Shown: in pieces, positions 1,794 to 44,540 of the stretch | Layout of the letters: every line of letters begins with the position of its first letter | How positions within the stretch are numbered: position 1 is the first letter of the stretch | Origin: Escherichia phage DTL | Sequence record: MG050172 | DNA length: 45,814 nucleotides | Reading direction: 5' to 3' (one strand) | Notes under the pieces: model-generated | Seen by the model: the letters and a program-made list of their open reading frames with translations, nothing else | Database searches by the model: none | What the model was told of the DNA's origin: nothing | Made by a program: the position numbers and the translations under genes

Positions 1794-2222
1794 ATGAATT
1801 GGCATGAACATTACGATTACAAAGATGGAAAGCTTTATAGGAAGTACCAAAACCACAATCACCCGGCAGGAAAGGAGTGTGGCTGGATTGATTTAAGGGG
1901 TTACGTTAGGACTAAGCTGTTTTCAAAGATGACTTTTGCCCATCTAGTAATATGGGAAATGCATAACGGAGAGGTTCCCGAGGGCATGGAGATCGACCAC
2001 ATTAATGGAGTTAAGCATGATAACAGGATTGAGAACCTAAGGTGCGTAGATAGGTGGGTAAACTGCAAGAATATGGCGAAGAGAAAAGACAATAAAAGCG
2101 GGCAAACTGGAGTTAGTTACGTTGAGTCAAGAAATGTTTGGGTAGTAAGTATACATGTAAACAAATTCACACATAGTCACACGTGCGATACGAAAGATGA
2201 GGCAATTTCAATTGCAAAATAA
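1794..2222 (+). CDS. HNH homing endonuclease
   Basis: Signature AHLVIWEMHNGEVPEGMEIDHINGVKHDNRIENLR; RBS GGAG upstream. Confidence 0.8.
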   Translation: MNWHEHYDYKDGKLYRKYQNHNHPAGKECGWIDLRGYVRTKLFSKMTFAHLVIWEMHNGEVPEGMEIDHINGVKHDNRIENLRCVDRWVNCKNMAKRKDNKSGQTGVSYVESRNVWVVSIHVNKFTHSHTCDTKDEAISIAK

Positions 2223-6568: not shown

Positions 6569-7093
6569 TTATCTCCCGTGGTTTTTGTGGAATTTACCAT
6601 TCGCAAACTCAGCTCTAGCAGCAATTGCATCATCTATGTTGTCATAAAAACCAAGATGATATCTTTTCTTTTCGTATCTGGCGTAGGCGGCGAACTTTCC
6701 TGTTCGGCTCATGTAGCAAACACCAGTAACTCCGGTCTTGTTGTCAGACCTTCTTTTGGCGTTCCTTGTGTTTTCTGACCACGTTGCCAGCCTTAGGTTT
6801 GATATGTGGTTGTTTGATTTATCACCATCTATGTGGTCAACAACCATTTCATCTGGAACCTTTTGACCTGTCTCTATCTCGTAGACTATCTTATGAACAC
6901 AGTATAGCTTTGCGTGTATGCCAACTTGATGATACCCACTATTTGAAAGCTTGCATCCGCATGGCTTATTTGCGTGTCTTTTATTCCACCTCTTTAAGTC
7001 CCAATCTATATTGTTAGTGTGAGTGTCGATCGTTCTCTCCTTGAAGTAAGGGACTCCATCAACAAGATAAATATATTTAGAGAAGTCCATCAC
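6569..7093 (-). CDS. HNH homing endonuclease
   Basis: Motif VVDHIDGDKSNNHISNLRLATWSEN plus AP2-like C-terminus. Confidence 0.8.
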   Translation of the reverse strand: MMDFSKYIYLVDGVPYFKERTIDTHTNNIDWDLKRWNKRHANKPCGCKLSNSGYHQVGIHAKLYCVHKIVYEIETGQKVPDEMVVDHIDGDKSNNHISNLRLATWSENTRNAKRRSDNKTGVTGVCYMSRTGKFAAYARYEKKRYHLGFYDNIDDAIAARAEFANGKFHKNHGR

Positions 7094-20182: not shown

Positions 20183-20599
20183 TTGTATGGAGGTAATATG
20201 AATGATGCAATTTTGGCGTTTATGCGCTCGCTTGTTCCGGCGCTCAAGGTGGTGGATGACGAATCAATTAATGTATGGATTGATTTGGCACGTCTATACG
20301 TATGCGAAAGCAAGTTTGGAGCAGATAAAGATAAGGCTGTGGGACTTTATGCATTACACTTGATGCTCGCTGATGGCGCGTTCAAGGGCGAGAATGAAGG
20401 CCTGGAAACATACAGCCGTAGAATGGCGAGTTACGCACTGAGCGGTGAATTTTCCATCACCTATGATAACCAATCAGCAATCCAGGGTGATTTATCATCT
20501 TCCTCCTGGGGGCGCATGTACAAAGCACTTCTCCGCAAGAAAGGTGGCGGCTTTGGATTGATCACTTCCGCTGGTGGCGGTGGGTGCGGTTGCCGATGA
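20183..20599 (+). CDS. putative head-tail connector protein
   Basis: 138-aa ORF between capsid and tail genes. Confidence 0.3.
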   Translation: MYGGNMNDAILAFMRSLVPALKVVDDESINVWIDLARLYVCESKFGADKDKAVGLYALHLMLADGAFKGENEGLETYSRRMASYALSGEFSITYDNQSAIQGDLSSSSWGRMYKALLRKKGGGFGLITSAGGGGCGCR

Positions 20600-20967
20600 A
20601 CTACAGTGAAATTGAATCAATCACTCGCGCTGGAATTAACTTCTTTAGTGATGCTAATGGCGTTTACGAGATGAGCACTGGCGCTGGATATGTTGAAATC
20701 GTTAACGGCGTAGAGGTTGTGGTTAATTCGCAGGCATTCCAGCTAAAAGGCCTGGTGCGAGAAATCAAGGCGCGAGATATTGATGGTGAGTTTATCCAGT
20801 TTGGCGATAAGCGCGGAATCTTCACGGCACAGGTTGAAATCAAACAGGGTTATCAGATTAAAGTTGATGGCGAGACTTTTGTTGTTGTTGACCCGCGCCC
20901 TGTAAAACCAACCGGAACAGTGGTTGGTTATAGACCGATTCTTCGTAGGGTGGCTACTTATGGCTAG
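20584..20967 (+). CDS. putative head-tail joining protein
   Basis: 127-aa ORF overlapping neighbours. Confidence 0.3.
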   Translation: MRLPMNYSEIESITRAGINFFSDANGVYEMSTGAGYVEIVNGVEVVVNSQAFQLKGLVREIKARDIDGEFIQFGDKRGIFTAQVEIKQGYQIKVDGETFVVVDPRPVKPTGTVVGYRPILRRVATYG

Positions 20968-21397
20968 AAATATTGGAAGCGTGGCTACTTTTGAGAAATC
21001 TATTGCCGACTGGATTGACAGGGCCGATAAAGGTTTTGAGATTATAGTGGCTAATACGGTCACTAAAACAGCTAACGCAATTGTTGACCTTTCGCCTGTC
21101 GACACGGGTAGGTTCAAAGCTAACTGGCAAATCACCGCAAATTCACCGGCCCAGCAATCACTGAATGAGTACGATCAGACTGGTTGGCAGACGAAAACAT
21201 ATCTCGCCAGACAAGCTAGGGCAGCTGCCAATTCAAAGGCCACTAGTGTTATTTATATAACCAACCGACTTGATTACGCAGCAGATCTTGAGTACGGAGC
21301 TTCAAATCAGGCTCCAGCTGGCGTTTTGGGAGTGGTGCAGGCAAGGTTAGGCAGGTATTTCCAGGAAGCAGTAGAGGAGGCGCGTCGTGCAATATGA
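20960..21397 (+). CDS. putative tail completion / neck protein (HK97 gp10-like)
   Basis: Motif VDTGRFKANW; internal ATG 20960 preferred over track start 20924. Confidence 0.4.
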   Translation: MARNIGSVATFEKSIADWIDRADKGFEIIVANTVTKTANAIVDLSPVDTGRFKANWQITANSPAQQSLNEYDQTGWQTKTYLARQARAAANSKATSVIYITNRLDYAADLEYGASNQAPAGVLGVVQARLGRYFQEAVEEARRAI

Positions 21398-21788
21398 ATT
21401 ATCATTAGCGGCAAGGAAATTCGTCAATGATTTACTGGTAAATGAATTTCCGGTCAGATATCCAGTTGCGTGGGAGAATGCTGCATTCACTCCTCCGGCG
21501 GATGGGTCAATCTGGCTTAAGTACGACTACACAGAAGCTGACACTGTAACCTACGGATTAAGCAGGAAGTGCAAATACTACGTAGGCATGGTGCAGATCT
21601 CTGTTTTCTTCAGCCCTGGAACTGGAATTGACAGGCCCAGACAAATCGCTAATAAATTGGCAGAATCTATCATTGATGGTACAATGCTTGACAGCGGGAC
21701 CATTTATGAGTCTGGATTTGTTAACCCCGTTATCAAATCTAAGTCTGGGTGGTTTATCCCGGTTCGTTTTTATGTTCGTCTAGACTAA
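21387..21788 (+). CDS. putative tail terminator protein
   Basis: 133-aa ORF just upstream of major tail gene. Confidence 0.35.
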   Translation: MQYELSLAARKFVNDLLVNEFPVRYPVAWENAAFTPPADGSIWLKYDYTEADTVTYGLSRKCKYYVGMVQISVFFSPGTGIDRPRQIANKLAESIIDGTMLDSGTIYESGFVNPVIKSKSGWFIPVRFYVRLD

Positions 21789-21815
21789 ATTAACTCATTT
21801 ATTTGGAGGTGTATT

Positions 21816-22472
21816 ATTGCTCATTTATCAAATGGCACGCAGGTCTTCGTAGAAGGCTCTCGCGGAGCTGCAATTAACGTAACTGCAATTTCTAACGCAG
21901 TTACCCCTGTTTTAACCGTAGCTGACGGCTCTGGTATTGAGGTTGGCAATCACCTCCTGTTTACCGCGTCTTCCTCTACACTGCTTGCTGACAAGCATGT
22001 CCGAGTTACCGCAGTTACTGGTACATCAATCACAGTTGAAGGTATCGATACTTCTAGTACAACAAAATTCCCGGAGGGGTTGACTGGTGAAGTGGTTAAG
22101 ATTCTTTCCTGGTTCGAGGTTCCATGCGTTCAAGATGTATCCACTGACGGCGGCGAGCAGCAGTTCGTTAGCTTCCAGTGCTTGTCAGATGACCGTGAGC
22201 AGCAGATTCCGACTTATAAATCTGCCGTAACAAACACGTTCACCTTTGCTCATGAGTACACCAACCCGGTTTATCCGGTTCTGCGTAACTACGATGAGTC
22301 AGGGCAGGTTGTCGCAATTCATCTGTATGTTCCACGCGCACAGGAGATGCGTTTGCAGTCCGGCACTATCGCTTTCAACGACACGCCAACCATTGGTGTT
22401 AACGAAATCGAAACGGTGTCCATCTCGGTATCCATTCGTGGTCGACTGTCATCTGTGGCAGCACCAGCTTAA
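21816..22472 (+). CDS. major tail protein (start codon uncertain, apparent ATT)
   Basis: Frame open from 21789 to 22472 with no ATG/GTG/TTG until 22080; strong RBS GGAGGT 5 nt upstream of ATT 21816. Confidence 0.5.
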   Translation: MAHLSNGTQVFVEGSRGAAINVTAISNAVTPVLTVADGSGIEVGNHLLFTASSSTLLADKHVRVTAVTGTSITVEGIDTSSTTKFPEGLTGEVVKILSWFEVPCVQDVSTDGGEQQFVSFQCLSDDREQQIPTYKSAVTNTFTFAHEYTNPVYPVLRNYDESGQVVAIHLYVPRAQEMRLQSGTIAFNDTPTIGVNEIETVSISVSIRGRLSSVAAPA

Positions 22473-22475
22473 AGA

Positions 22476-22500
22476 ACAAACCCTCTTCGGAGGGTTTTTT
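22476..22500 (+). terminator. rho-independent terminator
   Basis: CCCTC-TTCG-GAGGG followed by TTTTTTATT. Confidence 0.65.
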
Positions 22501-22582
22501 ATTGCATAGCACTTTTTGCTAAAGCGCTCGTTCAACTTTGCTGTATAGTTACTTCATCGAAACGAAATGAAGGAATTAAGAA

Positions 22583-22831
22583 ATGAATAACGTTAAAAAC
22601 ATTATCAAGCTCGCTGCGGTTCTTGTTGCTTTTTATGCAGTAGTTCAGATTGTTAACCCAACTGGCGAGGCTGATGCCAATAGCAAGGCAAACAGATATA
22701 CTGTTGAATTTTCTAAGGCTGAGCTAGCATGTCAGGAACTTGTAGGTGGCAAAGTTGACCAAATCATGAAATACGGCAAAGAGGTTTGTAAGGACTCGGC
22801 TGCTAAGATTGCAAAAGAAAACACTAAGTAA
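22583..22831 (+). CDS. small secreted/membrane protein (moron-like insert in tail cluster)
   Basis: N-terminal hydrophobic segment; own promoter element and CATCGAAACGAAA leader upstream. Confidence 0.45.
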   Translation: MNNVKNIIKLAAVLVAFYAVVQIVNPTGEADANSKANRYTVEFSKAELACQELVGGKVDQIMKYGKEVCKDSAAKIAKENTK

Positions 22832-22869
22832 TAGAATACATACTCACAAACAATAAGAGGATTAACATA

Positions 22870-23184
22870 ATGGCAAAGTTCAAACTTTCACTGGCGGCAC
22901 TTCCTGACTTTAAGCTGCCGGTAAAATTCAAGCTGGCTAACGACCAGGATGTAGAGGTTATCTTTACGGTCAAGCACAAGAAAACATCTGAGTTGCAGGA
23001 ATTACTTAGCAAGGAAGATTTGAGCACAAAGGAACTTATCATGGCAATTGCTTCTGATTGGGATTTGGAGGAGGAATATAACGAAGATAACGTTAATGAG
23101 TTATCTGACCTTTTCCCAGCCTCAACCGTTGCACTGACTACCGCTTACATGCAAGCTTTAGCTGGTCAGCGAGTAAAAAACTAA
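22870..23184 (+). CDS. tail assembly chaperone (lambda G-like)
   Basis: 104-aa ORF between major tail and tape measure genes; ends in slippery A_AAA_AAC. Confidence 0.65.
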   Translation: MAKFKLSLAALPDFKLPVKFKLANDQDVEVIFTVKHKKTSELQELLSKEDLSTKELIMAIASDWDLEEEYNEDNVNELSDLFPASTVALTTAYMQALAGQRVKN

Positions 23185-23504
23185 AGAGGGCGGTGTATCT
23201 ACAGTACCAGTCAGACCCAACAGATGCCGAACTGGAAGCTATTGGGATGCGCCGCTCTGATTACGAAGATGAAGAGCCTGAGGTTTTACACTTCGACGAC
23301 AACATGATGAAGGCGTGGGACATTTATTGTTCAATGGCTACACAGTGGAGAGTCGGAGCTAACGGAGCTACAGGTTTAGATTACAACGTGCTAAACTTCC
23401 TCTTTAGAGTGTATAATGTTTCTGAAGAAGAATTGGTGCTCAGCGATTTACGCATCCTTGAAGCTAAGGCTCTAGAGATGATGGATAACCTGAGAAAAAA
23501 ATAA
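22870..23504 (+). CDS. tail assembly chaperone frameshift fusion (lambda G-T-like) by -1 slip at 23175..23181
   Basis: Heptamer AAAAAAC immediately before the G stop; -1 frame is open from the slip site through 23504. Confidence 0.55.
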
Positions 23505-23539
23505 CCCGCTTCGGCGGGTTTTCTATTATGGAGGCTTAG

Positions 23540-26515
23540 ATGGCAACAAATGAATTAGCCGGAATCACACTAGCCGTAGACGTCTCGCAAGTAGACAGTG
23601 GCACGCAATCCCTGCAAAAGTTCAGACAGGCTAACCAACAGGCCGCTTCCGGTATTGGTGAGTTCGTCAACGCTGAGCAGGTTGCTAAAAACCAGGCTAG
23701 AGATACCGCTCGCGCACTGGCTGAGCAACAGGCATCTTTAGCTAAGCTTCAAACGGCTATTGACCCGACGGCTGCAAAGTTCCGCAAACTCCAGGAGGCA
23801 GCGGTAGGTCTTGATAAGGCATTCGCAGCTGGAGTAGTTCCTGATGAGGAGTTTTTCCGATTAGGTGAAGCGCTTGAAACTCAAAACGCAAAACTTGCTC
23901 GTTCACGCGCGGCGCTAACTGAGGAAGGTAGAGCGGCAGCACAGGCTGCAAAGGATAAGGCAAAAGCAAAGGCTGAAGCGGATAGGTTCATTGCATCACT
24001 TGAGCGTCAGGCTCAGGCGGCAACATTGACGCGAGAGGAGTACATAAAGTTACAAGCGGCCCAGCTTGGCGTTAGCTCTCAGGCTGCACCCATCATTGAC
24101 AGAATCGCCGACGCATCACAGAAGGCAAACACCCAGTTAATTGCTCAGAGTAAGGCTTTTCAGAAATCAGGATTAAGCGCCGGGCAATACAAGAATGCTA
24201 TATCTCAACTGCCAGCGCAGATTACTGATATTGGCACATCGCTTGCTGGAGGCATTCCGATTTGGCTTATTGCAATTCAGCAAGGTGGGCAGATCAAGGA
24301 TGCATTTGGCGGTATTGGTAACACCTTTAGATTCGCGCTTGCAGCCTTAAACCCATTCAATGTAGCTGTTGGTGTTTTGGGTGGGGCACTTGTAGCTCTT
24401 GGTGTTGGCGCGGCTCAGGCTGAAAGTGAATTCAGGGCGTTAAACTCCGCAATTGCATTCTCCAACAACTCTACAATCGCATCAATCTCGCAGGTTAGGG
24501 AGTTGGTTAGCTCTGTTTCTGATGCAACAGGTGCCACCAGGGGGCTTGTGACTAGCATCGCAACAAGCCTTATTGAACAAGGTAACCTTACGCTGACGCA
24601 GATTGACAAGATTACTAAATCGACCGCAAGATGGGCGCAGTTGACAGGTAAGGATGCGAAGGAGATTACTGGTTACTATAACCAGATTGCGAGCGACCCA
24701 ATACAGGGATTGGTTGATTTGGATAAGCGCTTTAACTTCCTCACTAATGGTCAGTTGACGACGATCGAAAACCTGAGAAAGACAAAGGGAGAAGTTGAGG
24801 CAGTTACCGCTGCGATCGATATTTTCAGCAAGTCACAGGAAGCTAACCTTAACGACATAGCAGCTCAATTGACACCACTTGAATTGGCCTGGAATGATTT
24901 CAAAAAGTACATCTCTGATATCTGGGATGCAATTAGCCGTAGAACGGTTGGGGCGCTGAACCTGTTTGTTGACGTAATTGCCGGAACAATTGAGCAAATC
25001 AGGGTCTTCATTAACCAGGGTGATGTGCTGATTGGTGAATTCGTAATTAGCGCAACCCAAGCATTGCAGAGCATTCCTGGTCTTGATGGCGTTGGTGATG
25101 ATGTTATCAAGGGTCAGCAAAAGATTATCGATGCAGCTAAGAAACAAAACCTTGAGCTAGAAAAGTCTATCAGGGAGCGATATGCCAGAATCAGAGAGGG
25201 AGAACTTGGTTACGTTACTCGCAGAGAAAATCAGAATACCAACGAGCAATCAGGGACCGATGAGGAATTCGCAAAAAGGAGGAAGGCACTTCAGGATGAA
25301 CTTGATGCGATCAAGAAGAACAGGAAAGAAGAAAATGGTAGGGTTAAAGAGCAAAGAGACCTTACAATTGGTTACGAATCCGGCGTACTGGCACTTCAGG
25401 CTCAACTCAAGGTTCTTCAGGAAAATAGGGATATTGGCGCAGTAATAAGCAATGAGCGCAAACAGTATCTTCAGGAAGAGGCCAAATTCAGGATTCTTGA
25501 ACAGAGACAACTTGATGGCTCAATTACCAAAGAGCAGGCAAGACTTCTTCTTGAAAAGGACAAGATTCTTGAGTTAGCAAAGCAGAAGGCTGAACTAGGA
25601 GATCAGATTATTTTGCAGGAGCAAGCCAATAAGTTAGCTGAAGATAACCGCAAGAAGATTATTCAGATTAACAATGAAGCAAGTAACATCGACTTGGGTG
25701 CTGGGTTATCATCTCGTGAGCAGCAAAGGGCTAAGGAGATTCAGGCACTTCAATCCAATCAGGTTAATGCTGGTGGTTCTGTTGATGACGTAGACTTTCA
25801 ACAGCTACTGGAGGCGAGACGCAACTTTTACGCTCAGGAGGATGCGCTACGTGAAAACTGGCTCGCCGGCGTGAATCAATCCTTTGCCAATTGGGCTGAG
25901 AGCGCGACGGATGCATTCTCAATTGCTGGAAGTTTAACTACTACCGTCTTCGAGGGCATTACCGACCAGATTACCAACCTTGTAACCACTGGCGAGACTA
26001 ATTTCAGGGAGTTCACAGTTAGCATCCTTAAGCAGATAGCGAAGATTGCAACCCAGCTTCTTATTGTAAAGGCCATCGAGTCTAGCTTAAGTAGCTTTGG
26101 TGGTACTGGTGGCACTATTGGTTCAATTGCCTCTGGATTAGGTTTTGCTGGTGGCGGCTACACTGGGGATGGTGGAAAATATCAGCCAGCAGGCACGGTT
26201 CATCGTGGAGAGTTTGTATTCACAAAAGAAGCTACAAGCCGAATCGGTGTGAAAAACCTTTACGCGCTAATGAAAGGATATGCAAACGGCGGCGCGGTTG
26301 GTGGTCATTCCGGTTATGCAAATGGCGGTTTGGTTTCTGGTGGAACAGATGTTAATGTTAGTGGCATCACTGTTAACGTAAACTCCGGGGTTGGTAGCGA
26401 CCCAGAGCAAGCTAAGGCATTGCAAAGTGGAGTTAAGGCAATCGTAGCGGAAGAGATTGCTCAGTCTTTCCAGCAGGGTGGCCGTGCTTATGCTTACCTT
26501 CGCGGATTCAACTAA
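23540..26515 (+). CDS. tail tape measure protein
   Basis: 991 aa, Ala/Gln-rich coiled-coil N-half, TM-like central segment, Gly-rich C-terminus; canonical position. Confidence 0.85.
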
Positions 26516-27866: not shown

Positions 27867-28364
27867 TTGGAGACAAAAATGAACTGGAATGAAATTTTCG
27901 AATACAGAGATGGCAAGATCTATTGGAAAGTTAGCCCTGGCAGGAGGGCTAAGGTTGGTTCGGAAGCTGGATCAAATCAAATAAAAGGGTATAGATTTGT
28001 GAAATTTCACGGAGTTTTATATATGACACACATGGTTATTTGGGAGATGCATAACTGTGAAATACCGCATGGAATGGAGGTTGACCATTTAAATCACATT
28101 AGGGACGATAACAGGATAGAGAATTTAAGAGTTGTTACAAAGTCAATTAATCAGAGGAATGCATCTAAAAGAATTGATAATAAAAGCGGTTTTACAGGCG
28201 TTTCTTGGTATCCCAAATATTCAAAGTGGAATGCTTACGCGACAGTAAATTCCAAGAGGTTTAATCTTGGTTACTTTGAATCAAAGCAAGATGCCTGTGT
28301 GGCTGTTAAAAAATTTAGGTCCATAAATTATTTTCATAAAAACCATGGAGTTGATTTATGTTAA
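27867..28364 (+). CDS. HNH homing endonuclease
   Basis: Motif HMVIWEMHNCEIPHGMEVDHLNHIRDDNRIENLR; inserted between L-like and K-like tail genes. Confidence 0.8.
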   Translation: METKMNWNEIFEYRDGKIYWKVSPGRRAKVGSEAGSNQIKGYRFVKFHGVLYMTHMVIWEMHNCEIPHGMEVDHLNHIRDDNRIENLRVVTKSINQRNASKRIDNKSGFTGVSWYPKYSKWNAYATVNSKRFNLGYFESKQDACVAVKKFRSINYFHKNHGVDLC

Positions 28365-34133: not shown

Positions 34134-34366
34134 TCCTTAGAACCATGGTCTTTAATGGAGCCACCGTAACCGCCACCAGTGGCCTTAATTCCATCGTAGC
34201 GCACATCAACTTCGCCAGCTGGAACAACCACACCATTTTTCCATTTAGCCACGCATACGCCGCTTGCTTGCGTTGCACACCAACCATCAGGACGTGGACC
34301 TGATGAACAACCAACTGTCATTATTACTGCTGCTGAGATGATTACTGATTTGATGAAGTTAGTCAC
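34124..34366 (-). CDS. putative Cor-like superinfection-exclusion lipoprotein
   Basis: 80 aa, lipobox TVGCSS, GTG start, placed just beyond the J-like gene. Confidence 0.45.
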
Positions 34367-34399
34367 TTTGTACTCCTTAGTTAGTATGTTTCGTTTCGA

Positions 34400-34860
34400 T
34401 GGGATAACTATACAACCGTCAGTGAGGAATGTCTTTAGCTATTCGTGCTATTGTATACACGTAACCGATGTAACTGCGTGTATACCAGTGCCATCCGCGA
34501 GAAATCGTATACGCCTAGTTACGCCTAGTTACGCATTGGTTACACTAAAATATCTATATATATCAACCTTTTACTATTATTATTATTATTATATATATTA
34601 CTGTGTATATCATGTAACTACCTCTATAGGGTGTTGCGGTTATAAATTTCTAATATGTACATTTATACAGTATCTATCAACCAGCACACCAACGCACCCT
34701 CCGCGAGAAGCGGTATACACGATATACACGCTGGTTACGCTGAGCTATGGCTGGCTTGATATGCCAAAAAACGTAACTAGTGCCAACGCCTACACGTAAT
34801 TACAAAGATTCACGCGTAAGTTTGAATCAACGATTGGAGAAACCAATTGGACCCAAGCCA
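34400..34860. promoter_or_regulatory. divergent control region B: iteron-like TAGTTACGC repeats, (TA)n and (ATT)n tracts
   Basis: CCTAGTTACG x2 at ~34513..34537, (ATT)n at ~34574..34592, GAGCTATGGCTGGCT block; homologous to 7740..8170. Confidence 0.5.
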
Positions 34861-35109: not shown

Positions 35110-35583
35110 ATGGAATACAAACTCTACTTCAATTACGACAATGGAAAGTTGATATGGAAAGTCAAAAAGAAATCAGGAAATCCGGGCTCAGAGGCTGGTA
35201 GTGTGATGAGGGATGGTTACATCATGGTTGGTTTAAATAGAAAACTAATTCTTGCTCACAGAATAGTTTGGGAAATGCTTAAAGGCCCGATACCTGAAGG
35301 TATGGAGATTGATCATATTAATCATTGTAGGTCAGACAATAGGATAGAAAACTTAAGGATGGTGAGTAAGCCGATAAATCAAAGAAATAGATCGAGATCA
35401 AAAAATAACACAAGCGTATTCACGGGAGTTTGTTGGAGTAAGTCAGCTTCAAAGTTGGTCTCATCAATGAAAGTTAACGGGAAAAAAATTCATCTTGGAT
35501 CGTTCGATGAAATACAAGATGCAATAGCTGCAAGAAAGTCAGCAAACCAAAAGTATAAATTTCACAAAAATCATGGAGAATAA
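35110..35583 (+). CDS. HNH homing endonuclease
   Basis: Motif HRIVWEMLKGPIPEGMEIDHINHCRSDNRIENLR. Confidence 0.8.
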   Translation: MEYKLYFNYDNGKLIWKVKKKSGNPGSEAGSVMRDGYIMVGLNRKLILAHRIVWEMLKGPIPEGMEIDHINHCRSDNRIENLRMVSKPINQRNRSRSKNNTSVFTGVCWSKSASKLVSSMKVNGKKIHLGSFDEIQDAIAARKSANQKYKFHKNHGE

Positions 35584-40043: not shown

Positions 40044-40967
40044 TTAGCTATTCAATAAATCACTCGCCTTATATATCTTCTTCCTGATGCCGCTCTTGAA
40101 TGAGTATTCATCATTTGGTATTACCACCTCAACGTTCCTGTCATCCGCAACGCAAAGTAATTCCATATCAAGATTGCACGCCACTCTCAACTTGTAGTTT
40201 TTGAGCGCATAAGCAACCATCTCCATATTGTAGCTGGAGTGGCAAACAAGCGCGCAGCGGTTCCCAGTAGCAAGATGAACGCGAACACCATCAATCCAAT
40301 TATCGACAAGATAAGCGTACTCATCACTTTTAAAGGTACCAATAACAGCAACTGACTGACGGGTATAATCTTTTGCAGCATAACTAACAACTCCCTCTTC
40401 ATTTATAAACATTACATTGCACATCTCATCTGACAACCCATCACTATAAGCCATAAAGCACGGTATTGCGTGTATTAGTTCTCCTGATTTTGTCCTGCCA
40501 ACATCAAAACCAAACTCGCTATAGATTCCCTCGTATATACTGAGCGGAGTTGATTCTACTCTTTCCGTCCTTTCCATTATCTCTAAGCACCTTTTGTGGT
40601 CAATCTGAGCGCCCATTTTGTATAGTTTGGTTCTTGATGCTTGCTTGTTTGCTTTAACTATAACCTCAATTGGTGTTAAGTTCAGCCAGTCACCAAGCAA
40701 ATTTACTGAATCGGCGAAGGACGATCCAGTGCACTTCATGACCCATCCTATACCGGAGTCACTTCCGCATTTCGAACAAACTGCCGCGCCATTTCCTTTT
40801 TCACTGCCTATTTCGTCGGTAAATCTGAATCTGTCAGTGCCAAAGCAGTATGGGCATGGTCCGTGCTTCTTACTTAGGTGTCTATCATTCCAACCAAGTT
40901 CCTTTGCATAAAATGATTTCCACAATCCGGCCATCTTAGGTATAACTTCATTCTTATCGTAATTCAT
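40044..40967 (-). CDS. DNA primase (zinc-ribbon plus TOPRIM-like)
   Basis: Zn-binding CPYCFG...CSKCG at N-terminus; acidic TOPRIM-like C-terminal half. Confidence 0.65.
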   Translation of the reverse strand: MNYDKNEVIPKMAGLWKSFYAKELGWNDRHLSKKHGPCPYCFGTDRFRFTDEIGSEKGNGAAVCSKCGSDSGIGWVMKCTGSSFADSVNLLGDWLNLTPIEVIVKANKQASRTKLYKMGAQIDHKRCLEIMERTERVESTPLSIYEGIYSEFGFDVGRTKSGELIHAIPCFMAYSDGLSDEMCNVMFINEEGVVSYAAKDYTRQSVAVIGTFKSDEYAYLVDNWIDGVRVHLATGNRCALVCHSSYNMEMVAYALKNYKLRVACNLDMELLCVADDRNVEVVIPNDEYSFKSGIRKKIYKASDLLNS

Positions 40968-41443
40968 TTGCTTAACCCGTGATTTTCGTGAAAGTTGTAT
41001 TTTCTCTCTGCTTCAATTCTTACTTTATACGCCTGCTCTGGAGTATCGAAGTTCCCAAGGTGTAGCTGCTTGCCGTCAACCTTGATGTGAGCCTTAAATT
41101 TTCCGTGATTTAGCTTTGCCACTCCACAATAACCAGTTGTTGATAAAACGCTAATCTTGCAATTTCTTGAGTTACCTTGATTTGTTGTTACTCTTAGGTT
41201 TTCTATTCTGTTATCTAATTTGTTATGGTTTATATGATCAATGTAGTCGCCATTTTGAAGTTCTCCATTAAACATCTCCCACACAACTCTATGTACATAA
41301 GTCCTAAAGCCATTAACAGACACTTTGTAATAGCCAGATGTAGATAGTGAGTTGCACTCATCGCCAACCTTAACACGTCTTGCAGTGCTAATCTTCCAAT
41401 GCAATTTGCCATCTACATAGTAAAAATAATCATGCCAGTTCAT
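40964..41443 (-). CDS. HNH homing endonuclease
   Basis: Motif HRVVWEMFNGELQNGDYIDHINHNKLDNRIENLR. Confidence 0.8.
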   Translation of the reverse strand: MNWHDYFYYVDGKLHWKISTARRVKVGDECNSLSTSGYYKVSVNGFRTYVHRVVWEMFNGELQNGDYIDHINHNKLDNRIENLRVTTNQGNSRNCKISVLSTTGYCGVAKLNHGKFKAHIKVDGKQLHLGNFDTPEQAYKVRIEAERKYNFHENHGLSK

Positions 41444-44066: not shown

Positions 44067-44540
44067 ATGAATTGGAATGACATTTTCGAGTATAGTGATG
44101 GGCAGCTATTCTGGAATGAGAAGGGAAAAAGCCGCAAGATGGGAGTGGCGGTTGGTGCCATTCGTGACAATGGTTATATCCAGGTAGGGTACAATCGCAA
44201 GCTGTACCTTGCTCATCGCATCGTGTGGGAAAAGCATAATGGGCCGATACCTGAGGGCATGATGGTAGATCACATAAACCATATTAGAGATGATAATAGG
44301 ATAGAAAACCTTAGATTGGTAAATTGCAAGGACAATACAAGAAACACCAGCATAAGGTCTGACAACAATACTGGTCACCACGGTGTTTGCTGGTGTAATC
44401 GCAGGCTTAAGTGGTACGCAAGGATAAATATTGACGGTAAAAATAAGTTTTTAGGTTACTTCATAACAAAAGCTATGGCCATAGAGGCAAGAAAGCAAGC
44501 CGAGAAGTTATATGGATTCCACGAAAACCATGGAGTTTAG
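44067..44540 (+). CDS. HNH homing endonuclease
   Basis: Motif HRIVWEKHNGPIPEGMMVDHINHIRDDNRIENLR. Confidence 0.8.
   Translation: MNWNDIFEYSDGQLFWNEKGKSRKMGVAVGAIRDNGYIQVGYNRKLYLAHRIVWEKHNGPIPEGMMVDHINHIRDDNRIENLRLVNCKDNTRNTSIRSDNNTGHHGVCWCNRRLKWYARINIDGKNKFLGYFITKAMAIEARKQAEKLYGFHENHGV

Follow-up and report, generated by a model that had tools for sequence, protein, structure and literature searches.

An apparent AUU start codon of the major tail tube gene in Escherichia phage DTL and its linkage to an HNH homing endonuclease lineage

Introduction

To our knowledge, the AUU start codons confirmed in Escherichia coli are two, those of infC and pcnB. The products of these genes, IF3 and poly(A) polymerase I, are low-abundance regulators for which the weak codon is a control device (autoregulation of IF3, limiting amounts of PcnB). 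Relative to AUG, initiation at AUU in E. coli amounted to 0.02-3% in a first system (bioRxiv 10.1101/063800) and to about 1/6-1/8 in a second one (PMC3592434). In the latter, A/U-rich leaders lifted the AUU start approximately 3-fold and an intercistronic gap of 20 nt gave about 40% reinitiation (PMC3592434).

The second kind of system that is relevant here is the free-standing homing endonuclease. These elements are found in intergenic positions with conserved genes on either side, and the sequences that flank them are co-converted (PMC2988022). They are also often seen to cut far from their insertion site (PMC2988022).

The genome sequence of phage DTL was obtained by 454, and RAST was used for its annotation (Halter and Zahn, 2018, PMC5816109; GenBank MG050172). 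Its virions have normal long flexible tails and cultures are lysed rapidly (PMC5816109). In the published table five consecutive ORFs of 402, 393, 249, 315 and 312 bp are listed, and the name 'major tail protein' is given to the ORF of 393 bp (PMC5816109). The window analysed here is the whole stretch of 45,814 nucleotides of this record, and all positions refer to it.

Results

The frame of the tail tube gene opens long before its first canonical start codon

An earlier note, made from the letters of this DNA, had described a frame ending at 22472 that is open from 21789 and has its first in-frame ATG, GTG or TTG only at 22080. Both observations hold. The frame is preceded by an in-frame TAA at 21786-21788, is closed by the TAA at 22470-22472 and counts 228 codons including the stop (227 open codons and TAA). 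TTG 22080 is indeed the earliest canonical codon, and it lags 97 codons behind the opening of the frame, which is the largest lag among the long open frames of the coding strand and a clear outlier. The ribosome-binding site that the same note had placed 5 nt before ATT 21816, GGAGGT at 21805-21810, is present as well and can be extended to GGAGGTG (21805-21811), after which 4 nt remain to the ATT at 21816-21818. A further in-frame ATT lies at 21813, in total four being present between the stop and the body of the gene, and an out-of-frame TTG at 21817 overlaps the ATT (ATTATTG). The TAA at 21786-21788 doubles as the stop of the upstream tail-terminator gene; this gene and the tail tube gene share one reading frame. 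The features of the locus are as follows.

21387 to 21788, + strand: tail terminator gene, 133 aa, PF13554; 27 nt separate its TAA stop from the ATT
21789 to 21815, + strand: allele-specific intergenic spacer of 27 nt, consisting of an A/U-rich tract, the Shine-Dalgarno sequence and the 4-nt TATT
21805 to 21811, + strand: Shine-Dalgarno sequence GGAGGTG, a 7-nt perfect complement of the 16S rRNA 3' end
21816 to 21818, + strand: ATT, proposed AUU initiation codon, homologous to the ATG of the orthologues
21816 to 22472, + strand: major tail tube protein gene, 218 codons and TAA, 657 nt, PF08813, PHROG 584
21817 to 21852, + strand: out-of-frame (+1) TTG with an ORF of 11 codons, TAG at 21850-21852; possible competing initiation site
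22080 to 22472, + strand: 393-bp ORF from TTG, the published gene call (ORF 40 of DTL), covering profile positions 91-216 of 218 only
22478 to 22504, + strand: intrinsic terminator-like hairpin AAACCCTCTTCGGAGGGTTT with T-run, directly 3' of the tail tube gene

A promoter-like site, TTGGCA-17-TACAAT with TG, was noticed by consensus match at 21657-21685 within the tail-terminator gene upstream of the tube gene. Together with the strong terminator at 22478-22504 it could delimit a dedicated high-output transcription unit for the tube gene, both elements being consensus matches only. In an Rfam scan of 21300-22700 no family reached its gathering score, and the only match listed was rsmX at 22402-22500 with 21 bits against a required 56. 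The late-start frame at 34200-34799 was considered as a comparable case and rejected: its translation is of low complexity and rich in Tyr, and it is an A/T-rich, non-coding-looking stretch between divergent genes.

ATT 21816 occupies the position of the ATG of related tail tube genes

The region is 85-89% identical to that of the Rtp-like Drexlerviridae, and the order of the genes is as in these relatives (tail terminator, tube, small ORF, chaperones, tape measure). The small gene at this place in DTL (22583-22831, 82 aa, phrog_22925) follows the tube gene and precedes the tail assembly chaperones; in Rtp, MM01 and RobRod40 an unrelated gene of 387 nt is found at its position. In Rtp, SU57, JeanPiccard, PCEc3, T145P1 and BEK2 the orthologue of the tube gene is 657 nt long and begins with ATG GCT CAT TTA/CTC. 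Alignment of the orthologous starts, which the earlier note had proposed as a check, places ATT 21816 under the ATG of each of these phages. The same codon is reached when 657 nt are counted back from the stop of the DTL tube gene, and the correspondence of ATT and ATG holds in both subfamilies.

The 218-aa protein that is read from the ATT matches positions 3-215 of 218 of PHROG 584 (E=1e-84) and PF08813 at residues 52-216 with 224 bits (cut-off 24.2). Two tail tube homologues solved by cryo-EM, PDB entries 9l0f (E=1e-71) and 9jlf, align from chain residue 2, and the full-length identity to the Rtp-like orthologues is 82-95%. Between 21819 and 22079 the substitutions relative to seven relatives are mainly in the third codon position (7/9/48 in comparison with Rtp), as in the rest of the gene. 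TTG 22080 thus lies far inside a contiguous protein, as had been supposed, since the ORF that begins there is without 90 profile positions. Compared with the tail tube proteins of T1/Rtp-like siphophages (PF08813/PHROG 584; 9l0f, 9jlf), DTL differs only in its translation start signals.

Coverage of the profile, the solved homologues, evolution of the coding type and the normal tails together imply that the full-length tube protein must be made, and that no canonical start can serve for it. The earlier note had left a choice between a single-base error and a rare AUU start; the latter is supported by the position of the ATT at the ATG of the orthologues, the full-length profile match and the coding evolution. 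We therefore consider it probable, with a rough probability of 0.8, that the major tail tube protein of DTL starts by genuine AUU initiation at 21816. A start at this codon would give the N-terminus AHLSNGTQVFVEGSR (Met removed), that is the same 218-aa protein MAHLSNG... as that of the AUG relatives.

The non-AUG junction recurs in 24 loci

The junction was found in 24 loci, being DTL and 23 others from the isolates MM01 (Germany), RobRod40 (UK) and phiEB49 (USA) and from metagenome/SRA contigs. GGAGGTG followed by 4 nt and AUH is present in 24/24: the codon is ATT in 23 loci, ATC in one (L059) and ATG in none. The 23 loci read GGAGGTGTATT-ATT-GC and L059 reads GGAGGTGTACC-ATC-GC. As the tube proteins of these loci diverge down to 60-62% identity, the sequences indicate that reversion to ATG, which takes one base, had ample opportunity; none is seen, and the sole change is to another near-cognate codon, ATC.

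Part of the loci came from a search of a protein collection, which returned tail tube clusters starting with M[N/I]WRCIIAHLSNG; such starts arise because the gene caller reads through TGG AGG TGT ATT ATT, and the contigs of these clusters, as well as further contigs reached by way of the HNH protein described below, added loci. With a short N-terminal query against a large protein collection just two ordinary MAHLSNG fragments were obtained. Exact and degenerate junction patterns, run on the IMG/VR and JGI metagenome contigs, retrieved only phiEB49 and unrelated chance matches and no variant spacer with ATG. The rarity of GGAGGTG was dropped as an argument, as its count in the DTL genome is at chance level (3 found, 3.5 expected); what gives it weight is where it lies and that it does not vary among the 24 homologous loci.

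An in-frame TTG six codons upstream of the ATT is present in 15 of the 24 loci, 4-9 nt past the upstream stop where the distance was examined. The other nine loci represent five distinct alleles (DTL, phiEB49, L055/56, L057/58 and L059) without a canonical in-frame start between the upstream stop and the ATT or ATC. DTL and phiEB49, which both belong to this group, are plaque-forming isolates.

More than one base distinguishes the DTL allele from the ATG alleles. Its 27-nt spacer, which is a different sequence and 12 nt longer, stands in place of the 15-nt spacer CAAAAGGAAAAATAC of the ATG-type relatives, and base-level comparison confines the allele-specific tract to 21789-21818 (about 30 bp), that is the spacer and the third base of the start codon. 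The surroundings are finely mosaic: within 20200-23600 the best match is T145P1 to the left of 21788, MM01 from 21789 to about 21915 and BEK2 to the right of about 21916. DTL and MM01 are 93-96% identical only in the patch of the allele-specific tract and 60-83% identical elsewhere. The stretch 20950-21450 is just 57-75% identical to BEK2 and RobRod40.

The tube gene is mis-annotated in public records

Standard gene callers take only ATG, GTG and TTG as start codons, and this restriction accounts for the mis-annotation of the tube gene in public records. The gene is truncated in DTL (393 bp) and in phiEB49 (555 bp), and it is extended through the Shine-Dalgarno sequence from the upstream TTG in MM01 and RobRod40 (675 bp). 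The records MG050172, NC_023743/JF770475, MK373793 and OR896835 are inconsistent with each other and none of them has the ATT start. All metagenomic carriers found are mis-annotated as well. Judged from the sequence comparisons, the correct DTL feature is 21816-22472 with an ATT start.

The variant spacer is the 3' flank of an HNH gene in 18 loci

In 18 of the loci an ORF with an HNH_3 domain (PF13392) of 159-162 aa is situated between the tail-terminator and tube genes; the copies of RobRod40 and phiEB49 have 160-161 aa. In these 18 loci the variant spacer is the 3' flank of the HNH gene. The linkage is tight: the junction is non-AUG in 18/18 loci that bear this HNH lineage, and all nine protein clusters of the lineage occupy the slot between terminator and tube gene in every contig examined. 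Six HNH copies that were aligned are mutually 69-88% identical, and the most divergent member, that of L059, is 60% identical to the HNH protein of RobRod40.

Six loci (DTL, MM01, L030, L031, L033 and L034) have the junction without the HNH gene. Here the TAA of the tail-terminator gene takes the place of the TAA of the HNH gene, and in DTL the slot consists of the 27-nt spacer only, the HNH ORF being absent. Among 82 Rtp-like records that align to DTL as one uninterrupted piece, no insert was present in the slot. Junctions were read in the ATG-type relatives Rtp, SU57, JeanPiccard, PCEc3, T145P1 and BEK2, and, beside phiEB49, in Sf12 and Sd1; all of these combine ATG with the absence of HNH. 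Spacer and start codon are consequently common to carriers with and without the HNH gene, unlike the naive (ATG-type) alleles. A search of IMG/VR for related loci by HNH protein gave only distant paralogues (<=54% identity) and was uninformative.

Most simply, the DTL allele would be what remained as a footprint when the HNH gene was lost, or a tract gained by recombination with a carrier. The sequences agree with either course, and the direction of HNH gain or loss is read from them by inference only. The linkage of the HNH gene to this slot fits the biology of free-standing homing endonucleases (PMC2988022).

Six paralogous HNH_3 genes are found elsewhere in DTL, at 1812-2222 (+), 6571-6982 (-), 27888-28364 (+), 35110-35583 (+), 40966-41419 (-) and 44076-44540 (+), and their products are 34-45% identical to the HNH protein in the slot of RobRod40. 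In three of these genes the Shine-Dalgarno sequence of the gene downstream falls within the 3' end or immediately behind it (GGAGTTTAGAGTG at 44538, GGAGAATAAAATG at 35581 and GGGAGATAACTATG at 6571). Between the tail-terminator and HNH genes a terminator-like hairpin, AAAGCCCCTCCTGGGGCTTTT, was observed at 655-700 of the phiEB49 locus (L007) and at 1440-1470 of L059. Both carriers of the Rogunavirinae type thus possess it; Sf12 and Sd1, whose spacer is 14 nt long, do not.

A strong Shine-Dalgarno sequence and an A/U-rich leader precede the AUU

Two points count against the use of AUU in this gene: it is weak as a start codon, and each virion requires hundreds of copies of the tube protein. 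The predicted duplex of GGAGGUG with the 16S 3' end has an energy of -13.2 kcal/mol and is tied for the strongest in the genome; for the ATG allele of Rtp (AAGGAA) the prediction is -5.6 kcal/mol. This difference, which is an estimate, suggests that the strength of the Shine-Dalgarno sequence compensates for the weak codon. In DTL 14 of the 16 nt before it are A/U, and in all carriers 12-14 are A/T.

The following course of initiation is proposed. The 30S subunit would be placed by the perfect 7-nt Shine-Dalgarno sequence GGAGGUG (21805-21811) behind the A/U-rich leader, and the initiator tRNA would then decode the near-cognate AUU four nt past the helix. The weak codon would be offset by the strong Shine-Dalgarno sequence together with the A/U-rich leader, and perhaps also by ribosomes that come in from the tail-terminator gene, 27 nt upstream, such that enough tube protein is made. 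The out-of-frame UUG at 21817, which is equally well spaced from the Shine-Dalgarno sequence, should compete with the AUU.

Two other explanations were discarded. Accessibility of the mRNA does not distinguish the alleles, the predicted unpaired probability of the region from Shine-Dalgarno sequence to start being alike (0.50 and 0.51). A phage-encoded initiator tRNA that reads AUU is ruled out, because the sole tRNA is a tRNA-Arg(UCU). This tRNA gene (anticodon TCT) is located at 12077-12154.

Discussion

Alternative starts

That AUU 21816 is the codon actually used is what we infer from the comparisons above. The best surviving alternative, although improbable, is an in-frame start elsewhere: at ATT 21813, at ATT 21801 or 21789 by reinitiation after the tail-terminator TAA, or, in the sister alleles, at the upstream TTG. 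Such a TTG is available to the phages of 15 of the 24 loci, reinitiation over a short distance needs little help from a Shine-Dalgarno sequence (PMC3592434), and the four in-frame ATT codons of DTL offer a choice of sites. However, the upstream TTG is missing in five distinct alleles including DTL, whereas the Shine-Dalgarno sequence, the 4 nt and AUH are invariant. A Shine-Dalgarno sequence cannot serve a start codon upstream of it, and the TTG precedes the invariant one. Moreover, a TTG start would make the invariant TGGAGGTGTATT coding, yet synonymous variation is absent there, and this absence points to a constraint at the level of the RNA. ATT 21813 is just 1 nt past the Shine-Dalgarno helix, and both the ATG alleles and the solved homologues begin at the position of 21816.

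A start at TTG 22080 or GTG 22092, which would yield a protein of 126-130 aa and make the open frame upstream a relic, is very unlikely. TTG 22080 is the RAST call of the DTL paper (PMC5816109), and shortly before it, at 22073-22079, DTL reads GGAGGGG where BEK2 reads GGCGGGG, owing to a DTL-specific change of C to A (Ala to Glu). But the GGAGG ends 2 nt before the TTG, which is too close, and the product would be without 90 of the 218 profile positions and without the first 37 positions of PF08813, a part that is present in the solved homologous tube proteins. The 88 codons upstream of the TTG are open and under purifying selection. Both the TTG and the GTG recur in BEK2, whose allele is of the ATG type, so that these are ordinary internal codons, and the normal tails of DTL speak against a short tube protein. 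An exact look-up of the truncated 130-aa product found nothing on record. The GGAGG at 22073 ends 14 nt before the in-frame GTG 22092; an additional product of internal initiation from the signals at 22073-22094 is conceivable, with poor geometry.

Still less credence is due to a model in which ribosomes would initiate out of frame, on UUG 21817, and make a programmed shift to the tube frame ahead of TAG 21850. In its favour, UUG surpasses AUU as a start codon, and its distance from the Shine-Dalgarno sequence is equal. The 11 codons of the +1 ORF contain no slippery heptamer, however; they vary among the carriers (TTATCA / CTCAGC / CTCGCA), L059 has no UUG at all (ATCG), and a product initiated in +1 would depart from the conserved MAHLSNG N-terminus. 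A role of the UUG as a conserved decoy or frameshift device was likewise rejected, as L059 is without it and the short ORF is not conserved. The test for programmed frameshifting or readthrough among the carriers revealed no conserved slippery heptamer. The base after the upstream TAA stop is A, and ribosomes reading through this stop would produce a fusion of the tube protein with the terminator or HNH protein.

The single-base error that the earlier note had offered as its second option, a true ATG turned into ATT by the 454 reads, has next to no probability: although the record goes back to a single pyrosequencing of the genome, for which no validation is stated, and one change of T to G restores ATG, the same ATT lies in an identical 17-nt block in 22 other loci (independent isolates, metagenomes and different laboratories) with ATC in one more, so that 23 other independently sequenced loci have the ATT/ATC junction, 454 errors are indels in homopolymer length and not substitutions of G to T (ATGG to ATTG needs two compensating miscalls), and the entire 27-nt spacer, not one base, departs from the ATG alleles.

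Comparison with infC, pcnB and the T4 elements

With infC and pcnB the DTL tube gene would share a fixed AUU at the expected start, a usable Shine-Dalgarno sequence and a protein that is the same as from AUG. What characterizes that class in sequence is found here too: a canonical in-frame start is lacking, AUU stands at the AUG of the orthologues behind a Shine-Dalgarno sequence, and it is conserved in independent sequences. At this level of comparison the start of the tube gene would mechanistically be of the infC/pcnB kind, AUU being decoded by the initiator tRNA. The differences are in the setting. Whereas infC and pcnB encode scarce regulators, the product in DTL is the most abundant tail protein; the perfect 7-mer Shine-Dalgarno sequence looks compensatory, AUG alleles of the gene coexist in nature, and the start lies in the flank of a mobile element. 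A literature search gave no report of an AUU start on this tail tube gene.

The HNH lineage, a putative homing endonuclease, resembles the free-standing seg/mob endonucleases of T4-like phages (PMC2988022) in its intergenic slot between conserved essential genes and in its patchy occurrence among close relatives. A short co-inherited flank, a mosaic genome around the site and many paralogues (six in DTL) are further points of likeness. What sets it apart is the flank, which here gives the adjoining essential gene another start codon and another ribosome-binding site; in the literature searched, no such change is reported for T4 elements.

Significance

What appears to be new is an evolutionarily stable AUU (once AUC) start on a very abundant phage protein, located on the footprint of a mobile element; the mechanism as such is already known, but rare.

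Selection by the nuclease itself might account for this arrangement, though we regard it as rather unlikely. The HNH enzyme would recognise the naive junction including the ATG of the tube gene; the new spacer and the T or C as third base would protect the carriers, as well as survivors that have lost the HNH gene, such as DTL; and the perfect Shine-Dalgarno sequence and A/U-rich leader would have evolved to pay the translational cost. The proposal is weakened because free-standing endonucleases often cut at a distance from their insertion site (PMC2988022). In a milder variant, the AUU may make synthesis of the tube protein sensitive to IF3 and hence timed late in infection.

The AUG alleles of the same gene constitute natural controls with which the rescue of a near-cognate start by a strong Shine-Dalgarno sequence and an A/U-rich leader can be measured. 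In these phages a homing-endonuclease cassette appears to have rewritten the translation signals of an adjacent essential gene. If selection by the nuclease were the cause, a selfish element would have driven a structural gene that is both essential and strongly expressed to a non-canonical start, and would have kept it there across subfamilies.
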